This document shows positions 19,564-30,036 of a DNA stretch of 32,000 nt, piece after piece. The notes beneath the pieces are model-generated. The model had not been told where the DNA came from and ran no database searches. It saw nothing but the letters and a program-made list of their open reading frames with translations. Made by a program: the position numbers and the translations under genes. Positions within the stretch are counted from its first letter, which is position 1. Every line of letters begins with the position of its first letter. The DNA lies in assembly GCF_000017945.1 (NCBI RefSeq), contig NC_009776.1:150001-182000 (forward strand). Reading direction: 5' to 3'. Source of the stretch: Ignicoccus hospitalis KIN4/I (GTDB lineage Archaea; Thermoproteota; Thermoprotei_A; Sulfolobales; Ignicoccaceae).

Positions 19564-19708
19564 TGGTCCCGCCGCGGGGATTCGAACCCCGGACCACCCG
19601 GTGTCTGGGCCGGCGCCCCCTCATCCCGCGGGCCTAAGGGCCCTTCGGGTCCGGGGGCGGGCCTGGAGGGCCCTACAGCCGGGCGCTCTTCCGCTGAGCT
19701 ACGGCGGG
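19564..19708 (-). tRNA. tRNA-Tyr (anticodon GTA) with ~70-nt intron at the canonical 37/38 position, CCA encoded
   Basis: Exon 1 is CCCGCCGTAGCTCAGCGGAAGAGCGCCCGGCTGTAG. Exon 2 is ACCGGGTGGTCCGGGGTTCGAATCCCCGCGGCGGGACCA. The C1-G72 pair is the archaeal/eukaryal Tyr identity element. After splicing the anticodon stem is CCCGG/CCGGG with loop CTGTAGA. T arm is CGGGG-TTCGAAT-CCCCG. Confidence 0.88.
19603..19672 (-). other. tRNA-Tyr intron (~70 nt, very GC-rich)
   Basis: Minus-strand sequence GGCCCTCCAGGCCCGCCCCCGGACCCGAAGGGCCCTTAGGCCCGCGGGATGAGGGGGCGCCGGCCCAGAC lies between G37 and A38. Boundaries are inferred from restoring a 7-nt anticodon loop and may be off by 1-2 nt. The bulge-helix-bulge is only partially canonical by hand. 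Confidence 0.7.
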
Positions 19709-24051: not shown

Positions 24052-24394
24052 GCCCGGGCCCTCCCCGAGACCGGAGCCCCCGCGGCGCCCCCGCGGGGGT
24101 CAGCGCCGCCCGCGCTCCCCCCGTTCTCCCGCGAACGCGCCGCGGCCGGGGTTAGGCTGCTCCCTTCCGGGCCTGACCTGGTTCCCCCGGTTAAGGCGGT
24201 TGACCTCCGCCCTTCGGCGGAGGCTCCGCCACCGCGGGCCCCGCGGGGCGAGGGCCATTGCGCGGACGACGCCCCCCACGGGACCGCGGGGAGCCTCGGG
24301 GAGTTACTGGCCCCCGCCTTTCGCCCAATTCGGGCCCCTTACGGGGGGAGGGGGGCGAGCCCTCCGGCCCTACCCCGGTTGGCCCCCCTCCGCC
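24038..24394 (-). ncRNA. signal recognition particle RNA (7S / SRP RNA)
   Basis: The minus strand contains the universally conserved helix-8 motif CAGGTCAGGCCCGGAAGGGAGCAGCC (complement of 24155-24180), with a GGAA tetraloop inside the stem CCGGGG/CCCCGG. An Alu-domain-like 5' fold is present (GGGCC-GGAGGG..CCCTCC-CCCC-GTAA-GGGG-CCC). A perfect 10-bp terminal helix pairs GGCGGAGGGG (24394-24385) with CCCCTCCGCC (24047-24038). A TATA-like box lies 24 nt upstream. The region is extremely GC-rich. The ends are approximate. Confidence 0.85.
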
Positions 24395-24418: not shown

Positions 24419-24426
24419 GTTTTATG
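24419..24426 (-). promoter_or_regulatory. TATA-like box for SRP RNA
   Basis: The minus strand reads cataaaac and overlaps the stop codon of the upstream 488-aa gene. Its 3' edge is 24 nt from the first base of the predicted terminal helix (24394). Confidence 0.55.
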
Positions 24427-25888
24427 AGCACGGGCTCCCGAGGGGGAGCTGTGGGACTTCCGAGGGCTTTAGGACTCCTGGGGGCTCTTGGGTGGATATG
24501 GTGTTCGCGAAGCTCGTGGGGCTCTGCGGGTCTAGCAACGACTTATAGGTATTTATTGTTATCCTCAACGCCTCCACTAGCGACACCGGGGGTACATAGC
24601 TGCAAGCGATGCCGTTTGCGGCCGCCCACGCCTCTACGTCTTGGCCGCTGATTTGCCTAAACTTGGACGCTAGTGCCTTTAAGTACGCCTTTTGTGACTT
24701 CTCTATCAGCGGCAAGTAATATTTCATACAGTTAATTGCCTTCGTGGTCCCGTCCAAGACGTTGTAGAAGGCGTTGACGACGTTTGATAAGAAGCTTCTA
24801 AGCTGGACGGGGTCCCTCAAGTCGTAGTTGTTCAAGTTTTGGGCTTGGCCCCCGGGGCTCGCGAGCTGAAGGCACGCTTGTAGGGTAGAGGGCACCCTTC
24901 CGGCGAACGCCCCCAGCAAGGGGGCCAGTAAGTCTTCACCCAAGGTGTTCAAGATACTGATCAAGACGTTTTTGGAGTTGATAAGTAAGGCTTCGTACCT
25001 CCACACGTTGTTTATGTAATAATTATAGACGTTTACGTAACCGTTCCAAGAGTTGAGCATCAAGCCGTGAATTTGGATACTGTTTATGGGGCAAGGGGCC
25101 CCCAATCCAAAAGAGTAGACGTTCGTGTAGAATGGGTCGTTAAAGCTTAAGTAGTACTTCCTAGCCACGGTGTAGTTCTGGGGGTTGCCTACAACTGCGC
25201 AGAGGATGAAGGTGTTGTTGGGGAAGTCTGTAGCACACGCGGTCAGGGAGAGCCAAGCCCTCTCGGGGGGAGGCTCTATGGCGGTAACGTTCACGTTGTT
25301 CCTGACGAATCCTAATAAGTTCCTCGAGGTGCCCACTTCCAAGTAGACGTCTACGCCCTTCGGGTGGAGGATCGAGGCCAGTTCAGACAGCAGCTGCATG
25401 GTCTCCAAAGCTTCGTACTTCTGCAAGTGAAGCCCGGCCTCCGTGACTAGGTTGTTTATCTGTTGGGAGTACGCGTTCAACAGCTTAGCCCTCGCCGAGC
25501 CCGGGTAGGTGGCCTCGACTAACGCGCCGGCGGCCCTCAGCGCCGAGCTCAGCCCCCGCGCCTGGATGAGTAAGTTGGTTACGTAGTTTCTGAAAGCAGA
25601 ATAATTGGTTACGTAGTTATCGCTCCACGAGACGATTTCTTCGTACAGCCTGCCCCCCGGCTTGAGTAAGGCCACCAACTCCTCGAAGTCGGGACTTATG
25701 TTTGTGATGGCAGACCCTATGTTGCTCACGGAGTAGCTCAAGGCCTCGAGGGCTATTTTGGACTTGCAGTAGGCTTGAGCAAGTCTAGTCAAGAGCGCTT
25801 GGGTGCTCCTCTCCTTGACCGACTCTACTATGGGGTTCTGTGCGACGAGAAGCGCGGAGAGGAGCAGCGCCACGAACGCGACTCTCAC
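24422..25888 (-). CDS. secreted protein of unknown function with N-terminal signal peptide and multiple N-glycosylation sequons
   Basis: MRVAFVALLLSALLVAQN is a signal peptide, and there is no other TM segment. The protein is rich in Asn/Tyr/Leu/Ala. Sequons seen are NIS, NYS, NVT, NNT and NYT. Eight Cys. GTG start preceded by GGAGTGA. No family recognised. Confidence 0.75.
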   Translation of the reverse strand: MRVAFVALLLSALLVAQNPIVESVKERSTQALLTRLAQAYCKSKIALEALSYSVSNIGSAITNISPDFEELVALLKPGGRLYEEIVSWSDNYVTNYSAFRNYVTNLLIQARGLSSALRAAGALVEATYPGSARAKLLNAYSQQINNLVTEAGLHLQKYEALETMQLLSELASILHPKGVDVYLEVGTSRNLLGFVRNNVNVTAIEPPPERAWLSLTACATDFPNNTFILCAVVGNPQNYTVARKYYLSFNDPFYTNVYSFGLGAPCPINSIQIHGLMLNSWNGYVNVYNYYINNVWRYEALLINSKNVLISILNTLGEDLLAPLLGAFAGRVPSTLQACLQLASPGGQAQNLNNYDLRDPVQLRSFLSNVVNAFYNVLDGTTKAINCMKYYLPLIEKSQKAYLKALASKFRQISGQDVEAWAAANGIACSYVPPVSLVEALRITINTYKSLLDPQSPTSFANTISTQEPPGVLKPSEVPQLPLGSPCS

Positions 25889-28317: not shown

Positions 28318-28347
28318 CTGGAGCCCGCGGGCGGAGGGCCGATGTCT

Positions 28348-28356
28348 TAAAAAATA
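28348..28356 (-). promoter_or_regulatory. TATA-like box for aspartate kinase (also a T-run just downstream of the small ORF stop)
   Basis: The minus strand reads tatttttta, centred about 35 nt upstream of ATG 28317 and 10-18 nt downstream of the small-ORF stop codon. Confidence 0.45.
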
Positions 28357-28365
28357 GCTTTTCCT

Positions 28366-28527
28366 TTATGCGCCTCCAAACATGGCGTTTAGGTTGGTTT
28401 GTAAGGTGTCGATCAAGGTAGTTATCTTGTACACCATGTATACCCAAGCCAACGTGGCTATTAGGGATAACAAGATTATGGATATCTCGAAGAGCGTGAG
28501 GCCCTTAAGGGCGGCGCTCCTCCTCAA
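28366..28527 (-). CDS. 53-aa small membrane protein with type IV prepilin-like (class III) signal peptide
   Basis: Hand translation gives MRRSAALKGLTLFEISIILLSLIATLAWVYMVYKITTLIDTLQTNLNAMFGGA. It has a basic N-terminus, then K-G followed by LTLFE and a ~22-residue hydrophobic helix. It has its own TATA-like box and a GGAGG 5-6 nt upstream of TTG 28527. It is below the ORF-track size cut-off. Confidence 0.55.
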   Translation of the reverse strand: MRRSAALKGLTLFEISIILLSLIATLAWVYMVYKITTLIDTLQTNLNAMFGGA

Positions 28528-28557
28528 CTCGTCCTCCCCTCGCCCCGAGGGGCATTC

Positions 28558-28566
28558 AAAAATAAA
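28558..28566 (-). promoter_or_regulatory. TATA-like box for the 53-aa ORF
   Basis: The minus strand reads tttattttt, about 30 nt upstream of TTG 28527. It is flanked upstream by the palindrome aagcttaagctt (28565-28576). Confidence 0.5.
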
Positions 28567-28662
28567 GCTTAAGCTTCACTTACCGCGGCCCCCTGGGGTC
28601 CCGAGGGCCGCCGATGGCGGGCGGTGAGGGACCCCGGCACCCCTGGGCACCTCCCCCCTCAC

Positions 28663-28672
28663 ATAAGATTAA
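28663..28672 (+). promoter_or_regulatory. TATA-like box for gatD
   Basis: ataagattaa lies about 35 nt upstream of the in-frame TTG 28708. It abuts ATG 28672, which argues that 28708 may be the real (leaderless) start. Confidence 0.4.
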
Positions 28673-30036
28673 TGCTCAACCTCGCCTCTTTCCGGGGCGC
28701 GCAGCAGTTGAGTTACCCGTCCGACTTGGCGGCCTCGCTTCTCCAGAAGGGCATAGAAGTAGGGGACGTGATTAAGGTAGTGAGGGATGACGGCTTAGTA
28801 GTCGAAGGCATACTCATGCCCAGGCCGAAGGGCGGAAGGTACATAGTCGTCAAGCTGAAGAACGGTTACAACGTCGGGATAGACGTAAGGAGGATAAAGG
28901 AATTAGAGCTCGTGGCTAAGAGGAAGCCCCAACGGAGGGAGAAGGGCGAGAAGCCCCCTAGGAGGCCGGGCTACCCTTTGGTAAAGGTGTTAGGCACGGG
29001 CGGTACCATAGCTTCTAGGATAGACTACGAAACGGGCGCCGTGAAGCCAGCCATGAGTACGGAAGAGCTCGTAGAGGAGGTACCGGAGTTGCTCGACTAC
29101 GCCGACGTGGAGGCTGAACAGATAATGGACGTCCTCTCGGAGAACATGACTCCGGAGATGTGGAGCCGCGTGGCGGAAGCGGTACACGCGGAGCTGCTGA
29201 GGGAGGAGGTTGCTGGAGTAGTGGTGGCCCACGGGACTGACACGATGGTTTACACCGCCTCCGCGGTAGCGTTCGCAATAAGAGAGATAAACAAACCCGT
29301 CGTGTTCGTGGGGGCGCAGAGGAGCTCCGACAGGCCTTCCAGCGACGCTACGCTGAACCTCATAGGGGCTACTATAGCGGCCGCGAGGTCTGACATAGCG
29401 GAGTCCATAATAGCGATGCACGGGGAAAGCAGCGACACCTTCGTGGTCTTGCACAGAGCCACGAGGACTAAGAAGTTCCACTCGACGCGCAGGGACGCGT
29501 TTCAGAGCATATGTGCCCAGCCCCTAGCTTACGTGTGGCCGTGGACCGGCGACGTCGAACCGAAGTCCCGGCCGCTGCGCACGAGGGGCGACTGGACCCC
29601 GAAGCTGATGAACTCCTTCGAGCCGCGGGTGCTCCAGCTAAGGGCTTACCCCGGGATGCCCCCGGACCTCCTATACTTGGCCAAGGATAAGGGCTTCAAA
29701 GGGGTGATAATAGAGGGCACCGGAATGGGCCACGTCCCGGAGTACTTGGTGGACGCCATAAAGGAGTTGACCGAGTCCGGAATATTCGTCGGCGTGACGA
29801 CCCAGTGCGTCCACGGCACCACAAACTTGAACGTCTACGCGACCGGGAGGAAGATGCTGGAGGCCGGGGCGACCCCCTTAGGGGACATGTTAACTGAAGT
29901 GGCAACGGTCAAGCTTATGTGGGCGTTGGCCAACTATCCCCCGGAGGAGGTACCCAAAGTCATGGTGACCCCTCTAGAGGGCGAGTTGAGGGAGCGCAGG
30001 TTGCTCAGAGATTATCGGCTCTCGTATAGGCGATGA
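28672..30036 (+). CDS. gatD: Glu-tRNA(Gln) amidotransferase subunit D
   Basis: N-terminal GD.I.V....EGILMPR....VVKL.NGYN.GI domain, then the asparaginase-like GTGGTIASRIDYETGAV and HGTDTM motifs. Alternative starts are TTG 28708 (gives the usual ~19 residues before the GD motif) and GTG 28624 (ORF track; Pro/Gly-rich and unlikely). Confidence 0.9.
   Translation: MLNLASFRGAQQLSYPSDLAASLLQKGIEVGDVIKVVRDDGLVVEGILMPRPKGGRYIVVKLKNGYNVGIDVRRIKELELVAKRKPQRREKGEKPPRRPGYPLVKVLGTGGTIASRIDYETGAVKPAMSTEELVEEVPELLDYADVEAEQIMDVLSENMTPEMWSRVAEAVHAELLREEVAGVVVAHGTDTMVYTASAVAFAIREINKPVVFVGAQRSSDRPSSDATLNLIGATIAAARSDIAESIIAMHGESSDTFVVLHRATRTKKFHSTRRDAFQSICAQPLAYVWPWTGDVEPKSRPLRTRGDWTPKLMNSFEPRVLQLRAYPGMPPDLLYLAKDKGFKGVIIEGTGMGHVPEYLVDAIKELTESGIFVGVTTQCVHGTTNLNVYATGRKMLEAGATPLGDMLTEVATVKLMWALANYPPEEVPKVMVTPLEGELRERRLLRDYRLSYRR

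Follow-up and report, generated by a model that had tools for sequence, protein, structure and literature searches.

The sequence analyses of the short gene Igni_0200 of Ignicoccus hospitalis KIN4/I indicated that its product is best explained as a single-pass membrane microprotein, specific to this lineage, with a helix that is tightly conserved and packed on other helices, a reading to which we give slightly better than even chances. The gene lies in a stretch of 32,000 nucleotides (NC_009776.1, positions 150,001 to 182,000; hereafter the window, whose numbering is used throughout). An initial annotation, made from the letters of the window, had described it as a previously unannotated gene for a minimal type IV pilin-like protein, and had offered a generic single-pass small membrane protein as the conservative alternative. 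That alternative proved to be the better supported of the two, as no pilin profile matched the protein and the register of its N-terminal glutamate was not conserved in the family. Nothing beyond a pilin-like N-terminal motif marks Igni_0200 as a pilin and, judged from the database searches, the family is confined to Ignicoccus-like archaea.

Reading the minus strand codon by codon from TTG 28527 to the TAA stop gave a translation, MRRSAALKGLTLFEISIILLSLIATLAWVYMVYKITTLIDTLQTNLNAMFGGA, identical to that in the initial annotation, and this TTG was the first possible start in the frame. An exact look-up of the product showed that the gene was not new, having already been recorded as a “hypothetical protein” at locus Igni_0200 (ABU81384.1, WP_011998236.1, UniProt A8A8Y2). 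A published proteomics table lists Iho_0200 with 53 aa, a transmembrane domain, no signal peptide and no arCOG, and our literature search found no paper that mentions Igni_0200. The TATA-like box, the GGAGG before the start and the T-run after the stop that had been ascribed to the gene were each present at their assigned places (Table 1).

Table 1. Features of the Igni_0200 locus, in window coordinates.
Feature	Position	Strand	Details	Basis
CDS Igni_0200	28366..28527	(-)	53 codons/aa; TTG start 28527; TAA stop 28366-28368	ORF reading and exact database match
K8-G9-L10-T11-L12-F13-E14	28486..28506	(-)	Candidate prepilin-peptidase (class III) site K-G/L and invariant Phe-Glu	Family alignment
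Codons 15-33	28429..28485	(-)	Uncharged transmembrane core, 19 residues, bounded by invariant E14 and K34	Alignment, model, published TMD
Codons 34-53	28369..28428	(-)	Invariant K34 and D40; mildly amphipathic C-terminal helix	Conservation, muH, model
Shine-Dalgarno-like GGAGG	28533..28537	(-)	5 nt 5' of TTG start	
A/T-rich TATA-like box	28556..28568	(-)	TTTATTTTT at 28558-28566; ~35 nt upstream of Igni_0200 start	
Oligo-T TATTTTTTAA	28347..28356	(-)	T6 at 28349-28354; 3' of Igni_0200 stop; at TATA-box distance from aspartate kinase	

The view that this is a small gene with its own promoter-like box and Shine-Dalgarno-like sequence was borne out by the conservation of both across the genomes compared. 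A G-rich sequence (GGAGG or GGTGA) preceded the TTG or GTG start by 5–9 nt in all four genomes aligned (I. hospitalis and L001, L003 and L004), and an A/T box was located 35–38 nt 5' of the small-ORF start in six genomes. From its position, the box at 28556–28568 may be used by Igni_0200 and perhaps also by a plus-strand transcript. It lies ~25 nt upstream, on the plus strand, of a GC-rich block of ~65 nt in the spacer between Igni_0200 and gatD (28585–28655), and might therefore be a TATA box that is bidirectional or shared. The GC-rich block stood out from the remainder of the spacer by its far stronger conservation in the four genomes that have gatD beside the small ORF. It folds into a hairpin in which three pairs showed compensatory changes and a GA/UGA internal loop resembled a kink-turn. 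Its only Rfam match, to the Pyrobaculum H/ACA sRNA PyrR204, was sub-threshold (22.6 bits, gathering score 71), and the block might represent a regulatory element or a small RNA that has escaped annotation. The gatD ORF called mechanically from GTG 28624(+) has 470 aa and the published protein 442 aa, which fits translation from TTG 28708; the initial 28 codons of the mechanical ORF (28624–28708, +), which overlap the hairpin block, are probably non-coding. The longer ORF on the opposite strand of Igni_0200 (28382–28627(+), 81 aa) does exist, but stops interrupted its frame in two of the four genomes compared, in keeping with its having been dismissed as implausible.

The T-run downstream of Igni_0200 was present, but its role as a terminator was put in doubt by its distance from the next gene, as in all four aligned genomes it preceded the start codon of aspartate kinase (ATG 28317 in I. 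hospitalis) by 28–30 nt. This position suggests the TATA-box geometry of a near-leaderless aspartate kinase transcript, and because the distance is fixed we consider a role as terminator no more likely for the T-run than one as TATA box of aspartate kinase. A CC(N)CGGGC motif, perhaps an initiator region or the site of a regulator, was also observed 3' of the T-run, 5–13 nt upstream of the aspartate kinase start (28318–28330, -), in four of four genomes.

The syntenic regions of relatives were fetched using aspartate kinase as an anchor, and an ORF of 53–57 aa was called at the same place in a metagenome-assembled genome (MAG) whose aspartate kinase is 75% identical, in I. pacificus and in I. 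islandicus. A profile search assembled the orthologues of Igni_0200 into 19 protein clusters, eighteen of them of 50–59 aa and one whose call, made from an earlier start, runs to 92 aa. All 19 clusters derived from Ignicoccus or from Ignicoccus-like assemblies labeled Thermoproteota or Crenarchaeota, and none contained a Pfam domain. An exhaustive phmmer search of 1.84 billion representatives returned four matches, comprising the query, two orthologues and a repetitive 410-aa protein that we took to be spurious. Paralogues of Igni_0200 were not found by phmmer, by the profile search or in the loci. Comparison with the closest relative gave a dN/dS of 0.22 at a dS of ~1.7 (0.13 for aspartate kinase), and in comparisons with I. 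pacificus and I. islandicus the synonymous sites were saturated and 36–47% of residues were kept. Conservation of the frame in relatives, a check that the initial annotation had proposed, was thus evident across the 19 clusters. Because the frame, length, start, Shine-Dalgarno-like sequence and A/T box were all kept and the dN/dS was 0.22, we conclude from these sequence comparisons that the ORF is a real, conserved gene under purifying selection.

The layout that had been described for the product, a short basic leader ending in K-G and followed by a hydrophobic helix, agreed with our translation and with our model. Nine residues were invariant in the family alignment (M1, F13, E14, I23, A24, W28, V32, K34 and D40), and the family signature comprised a variable basic tail of 5–9 aa, with three to four Lys/Arg, followed by L-[TS]-x-F-E, 19 uncharged residues, a Lys and ~19 residues with an invariant Asp. 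Conservation jumped at L10-T11, immediately after the variable leader, and was highest in the block of residues 20–34. The length of the uncharged core was exactly 19 residues in 19 of 19 members. One-face helical periodicity of this conservation was not significant (permutation p = 0.2). AlphaFold2, run on the family alignment, produced one continuous helix spanning residues 3–51 with a mean pLDDT of 86, rising to 93–98 in the membrane part, and the C-terminal part had a muH of 0.35. Based on the Lys/Arg residues of the tail and the positive-inside rule, we infer that Igni_0200 would adopt an N-in/C-out topology with its C-terminal helix outside the cytoplasmic membrane.

Substrates of archaeal prepilin peptidases have Gly, Ala or Ser at −1 and a charged residue at −2, and PibD-type enzymes are permissive at +1 and +3 (PMC4371748). 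Class III leaders are described as short, often 6–12 aa, with very short ones accepted and an uninterrupted hydrophobic H-domain directly after the site. Glu or Asp at +5 is found only in a subset of the archaeal substrates. The candidate site of Igni_0200 has G9 at −1, and a Gly or Ala preceded Leu or Gln in 19 of 19 family members. K8 occupies −2, where Lys or Arg was found in 17 of 19, the exceptions being P0127 (Gly) and P0139 (Leu), such that a [KR][GA]/[LQ] junction was present in 17 of the 19. The leader before this junction is 9 aa in I. hospitalis and 5–9 aa across the family, and the uncharged core begins 5–9 residues after it. The initial annotation had drawn attention to a Glu at +5 as in bacterial pilins, and this holds for Igni_0200 itself, but the register was kept in only seven of the 19 members. 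The other 12 carried a four-residue insertion, of the form K-A-LTI[EDA]-LTTFE, that places the Glu at +9 from the K[GA] site, and in seven of these 12 the residue before LTxFE was Asp or Glu, not Gly or Ala. An Asp or Glu was also present at +3 in four of the seven members without the insertion, and overall an acidic residue at +3 or +4 was found in 11 of the 19 orthologues.

A PilFind-type prediction had also been proposed, and we re-implemented the rule as [GAS]-x4-[DE] followed by at least 14 uncharged residues, with one N-terminal transmembrane segment and a length of at most 350 aa. Igni_0200 passed (GLTLFE followed by 19 uncharged residues), but only seven of the 19 family members did; the reported false-positive rate of PilFind is ~1 per 3,675 proteins. 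If the FlaFind expression has the form [KRDE][GA][ALIFQMVED][ILMVTAS]x3, the Phe at +4 would fail it. As for the prepilin peptidase that was to be sought elsewhere in the genome, the literature assigns I. hospitalis a single such enzyme, the PibD homologue Igni_1405, whose proven substrate Iho670 forms type IV pilin-like fibers. One clade-4 secretion ATPase (gi 156937799) is credited to the genome.

Profile searches of Pfam, NCBIfam, PDB sequences and Flp pilins revealed no relationship to a pilin family. Pfam and NCBIfam scans at E <= 10 detected no pilin, archaellin, class III, N-methyl or Flp model, the prepilin N-terminal models PF07963 and TIGR02532 included, and the sole match of the peptide in these collections was a sub-threshold apicomplexan microprotein. 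The profile search of PDB sequences returned no pilin and only a transmembrane helix of a muscarinic receptor (E > 3), and a Foldseek search of the single-helix model against the PDB gave 0 matches. When the family HMM was compared with three annotated Flp pilins with the HMMER filters off, the score was ~0 bits.

The small gene was located upstream of, and co-directional with, aspartate kinase in six distinct genomes, with a gap of 42–74 nt in the four that were measured. Its neighbor on the other side was gatD in the I. hospitalis clade and other genes in I. pacificus and I. islandicus. Across nine loci, representing two kinds of neighborhood, no pilus gene was found beside it. A published gene list for Iho_0160–0247, which covers the window, consists of housekeeping genes and has no entry for a pilus ATPase, platform protein or prepilin peptidase, so the gene was rightly described as an orphan with respect to pilus genes. 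Scans of genomes and metagenomes with the family alignment, using a single narrow pattern for each, added three further loci. In GCA_054017055 and GCA_054016895 (L006 and L007) the small gene is unlinked from aspartate kinase, which in GCA_054016895 is on another contig, and overlaps the end of a 174-aa gene of cytoplasmic type by 4 nt. Aspartate kinase occurred without the small gene in L011 and L012, and the small gene is absent from the classical hom-AK-asd cluster of a more distant relative. We treat the adjacency to aspartate kinase as a case of conserved, inherited gene order within core Ignicoccus, not of functional coupling.

Several other features of these neighborhoods were observed. 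In the two Ignicoccus-related MAGs (L006 4480–6221 and L007 4480–6200), the small gene is translationally coupled to the gene for the 174-aa protein, which is beta-rich, and after it come a convergent gene whose 109-aa product is a membrane protein and a gene for a degenerate ATPase of the KaiC-like type (PF06745, E = 1.3e-4, sub-threshold). Such ATPases frequently occur in the vicinity of archaeal pilus loci, but the link in L006 and L007 is thin. The 174-aa gene had no family match and no homologue in the window, and since it adjoins the GARS gene we suspect it to be the orthologue of Iho_0164. Within the window, the order aspartate kinase, radical SAM gene, Iho_0197 was kept in every fetched Ignicoccus locus that reached that far, Iho_0197 being 34–53% identical. 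The gene (24422–25888(-)) encodes a 488-aa hypothetical protein for which a signal peptide is predicted but which has neither a Pfam domain nor an arCOG. The region 19567–19708(-) had an Rfam tRNA match over 142 nt (36.9 bits) that ARAGORN did not report, and is probably an intron-containing tRNA gene. The archaeal SRP RNA at 24069–24380(-) (128.5 bits) is an ordinary feature.

That the ORF arose by chance in a divergent promoter region would suit its very short length, its non-ATG start and the lack of any Igni_0200 peptide in the published whole-cell proteomics, in which the spectral counts were 0 for Igni_0200, 241 for Iho670, 225 for the 85-aa Ihomp1 and 0 for the prepilin peptidase Igni_1405. 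The zero for Igni_0200 is weak evidence, because the peptidase also scored zero and the only soluble tryptic peptide of Igni_0200 is its C-terminal 19-mer (ITTLIDTLQTNLNAMFGGA). The frame, length, start position and Shine-Dalgarno-like sequence were nevertheless kept among genomes whose synonymous sites are saturated, the 19 clusters adhered to 50–59 aa apart from the one representative called at 92 aa, and the gene was retained after its move to a different neighborhood. These comparative data effectively refute the chance ORF, whose probability we place close to nil. A regulatory role, in which the ORF would be a uORF or leader peptide of aspartate kinase acting by translation-coupled attenuation and the peptide itself would be functionless, draws on the position of the small gene directly 5' of and co-directional with aspartate kinase, on the short gap, on the recurrence of the adjacency in six genomes, and on the T-run between the two genes. 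We rejected it because the linkage is not universal, the small gene persisting unlinked in two genomes and aspartate kinase lacking it in L011 and L012, and because the T-run at its fixed TATA distance suggests that aspartate kinase has an independent promoter. In addition, purifying selection acts on the amino-acid sequence, in which nine residues are invariant, and there is no conserved run of Thr, Lys, Met or Ile codons. We therefore consider a leader peptide highly improbable.

The explanation of Igni_0200 as a minimal type IV pilin-like protein requires more discussion, and we regard it as possible but doubtful. According to this explanation, Igni_1405 would remove the leader after [KR][GA] to leave a 44-aa, Flp-sized helix subunit; the single type IV pilus-type ATPase and platform would then assemble it, either as a minor or priming subunit of the Iho670 fibers or into a thin filament or pseudopilus of its own. 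The K8-G9/L10 site after a 9-aa basic leader, the near-constant junction with its universal Gly or Ala at −1, the sharp rise in conservation past the variable leader and the invariant acidic residue near the start of the H-domain are all consistent with such processing, as is the fit of Igni_0200 to the PilFind rule with its low reported rate of false positives. The single long helix resembles pilin alpha-1, and Flp pilins demonstrate that ~45 aa suffices for a filament. PibD-type enzymes tolerate varied +1 and +3 residues and very short leaders. The genome has Igni_1405, a proven substrate in Iho670 and one clade-4 secretion ATPase, and small stand-alone major pilins are common in archaea. 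Against these points, neither sequence nor profile comparison relates the proteins to a pilin family and they have no arCOG, the G/xxxxE register is lost in 12 of 19 members, the acidic +3 or +4 residue of 11 orthologues breaks the H-domain right after the putative site, and two members lack the charged residue at −2. The gene never adjoins pilus genes in the nine loci and has no paralogues, and its product was unseen in proteomics in which Iho670 was abundant, although the peptidase was unseen as well. The published Iho670 fiber structures are reported to contain only Iho670. A further proposal casts Igni_0200 and its orthologues as the first type IV pilins of Flp size (44 aa when mature) in Crenarchaeota, processed by the PibD homologue Igni_1405 and forming an undescribed thin filament or serving as a priming or minor subunit of Iho670 fibers. 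It is improbable in our estimation, and a filament-forming role for Igni_0200 as such we likewise judge to be a long shot. If true, Igni_0200 would represent an archaeal counterpart of the bacterial Tad/Flp pilins, of independent origin, in the double-membraned Ignicoccus cell.

The explanation that we prefer, a membrane microprotein, can be stated as the following model. The basic tail would remain in the cytoplasm, the 19-residue core would cross the cytoplasmic membrane, and the C-terminal helix would reach into the intermembrane compartment that is peculiar to Ignicoccus. The conservation of residues 20–34 on all faces, together with the fixed length of the core, suggests that the helix is packed tightly on other helices, and we infer, purely from this pattern, that it might form a homo-oligomer or be an accessory subunit of a membrane complex. 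Several observations sit less easily with a microprotein of this kind. The [KR][GA]/[LQ] junction kept in 17 of 19 members is not obviously needed by a plain signal anchor, Igni_0200 taken by itself passes the re-implemented PilFind rule, and the missing pilus neighbors are weak evidence, because stand-alone small archaeal pilin genes are common. The spectral counts for Igni_0200 were 0. Igni_0200 is a legitimate candidate substrate of Igni_1405, and to PibD-type cleavage we give less than even chances. Clipping at K-G/L, if it took place, would reduce the protein from 5,862 Da to 4,891 Da (4.9 kDa), an acidic helix that has lost its basic tail.

The consequences differ between these outcomes. 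As a membrane microprotein, Igni_0200 would be one more conserved lineage-specific small protein in an organism with an unusual two-membrane architecture, and the 19 orthologues, which have no arCOG and no Pfam family, are of use for annotation. If the prepilin peptidase does cleave Igni_0200, no shorter pilin-like protein would be known from archaea, Igni_1405 would have a simple test substrate, and the question would arise of which filament or complex Igni_0200 joins. The analysis also corrects the description of the gene: Igni_0200 had been annotated before, its “terminator” probably serves as promoter of aspartate kinase and the bacterial-style Glu at +5 is not in a conserved register in the family.

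A number of known systems provide points of comparison for Igni_0200. The class III proteins, such as Iho670 and the UpsA/B and AapA/B proteins of Sulfolobus, also have a short basic leader, a charged residue at −2, Gly or Ala at −1 and a hydrophobic helix, and they share with Igni_0200 the presence of the peptidase in the same organism. The crenarchaeal cleavage sites KA/IS and RA/LS (PMC4371748) are comparable to the K-G/L of Igni_0200, with its Leu at +1. The class III proteins differ from Igni_0200 in that the latter has no globular or Ig-like domain, a candidate mature part of only 44 aa, an acidic residue at +3 or +4 in most orthologues and no link to assembly genes. No similarity was detected between Igni_0200 and the Iho670 family (arCOG03871), nor with any pilin profile. 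The euryarchaeal DUF361/EpdE-type pilins (~70 aa, QxSxExxxL, cleaved by EppA) are likewise encoded by small stand-alone genes away from the machinery, and have Lys-Gly at −2/−1 and Glu at +5. They need Gln at +1 and the dedicated peptidase EppA, whereas Igni_0200 has Leu at +1 and I. hospitalis a single peptidase, and Igni_0200 had no match to PF04021.

With respect to size, the initial annotation had placed the 44-aa mature peptide below the Geobacter-type pilins. The truncated PilA of the Geobacter type is a 61-aa mature pilin that consists essentially of the alpha-1 helix. This bacterial protein is N-methylated, has its gene in a pil locus and carries N_methyl/TIGR02532 signatures that are absent from Igni_0200. 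The mature peptide of Igni_0200 would indeed be shorter, but its size is not unprecedented because Flp/Tad (type IVc) pilins are equally short. The Flp/Tad precursors have ~60 aa, and the three annotated Flp genes that we retrieved encode 55–59 aa, leaving 41–45 aa after G/ATAIEY, where Igni_0200 would leave 44 aa. The likeness extends to a total length of 53–59 aa, a mature length of ~41–45 aa, a G/ site with Glu at +5 and a single transmembrane helix with a short polar tail. The Igni_0200 family departs from the Flp/Tad pilins in having Ile, Leu, Val or Trp in place of Tyr at +6, no Flp motif and no match to PF04964, and Igni_0200 has no tad locus beside it and an unconserved Glu register in its family. 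Lastly, Ihomp1 (Igni_1266), the outer-membrane pore, had no detectable sequence similarity to Igni_0200 in the exhaustive phmmer search and, unlike Igni_0200, is abundant in the proteome. It is, however, a protein of the same organism with comparable attributes, being a very small helical membrane protein that is specific to Ignicoccus and is made as an 85-aa precursor with a transmembrane domain.
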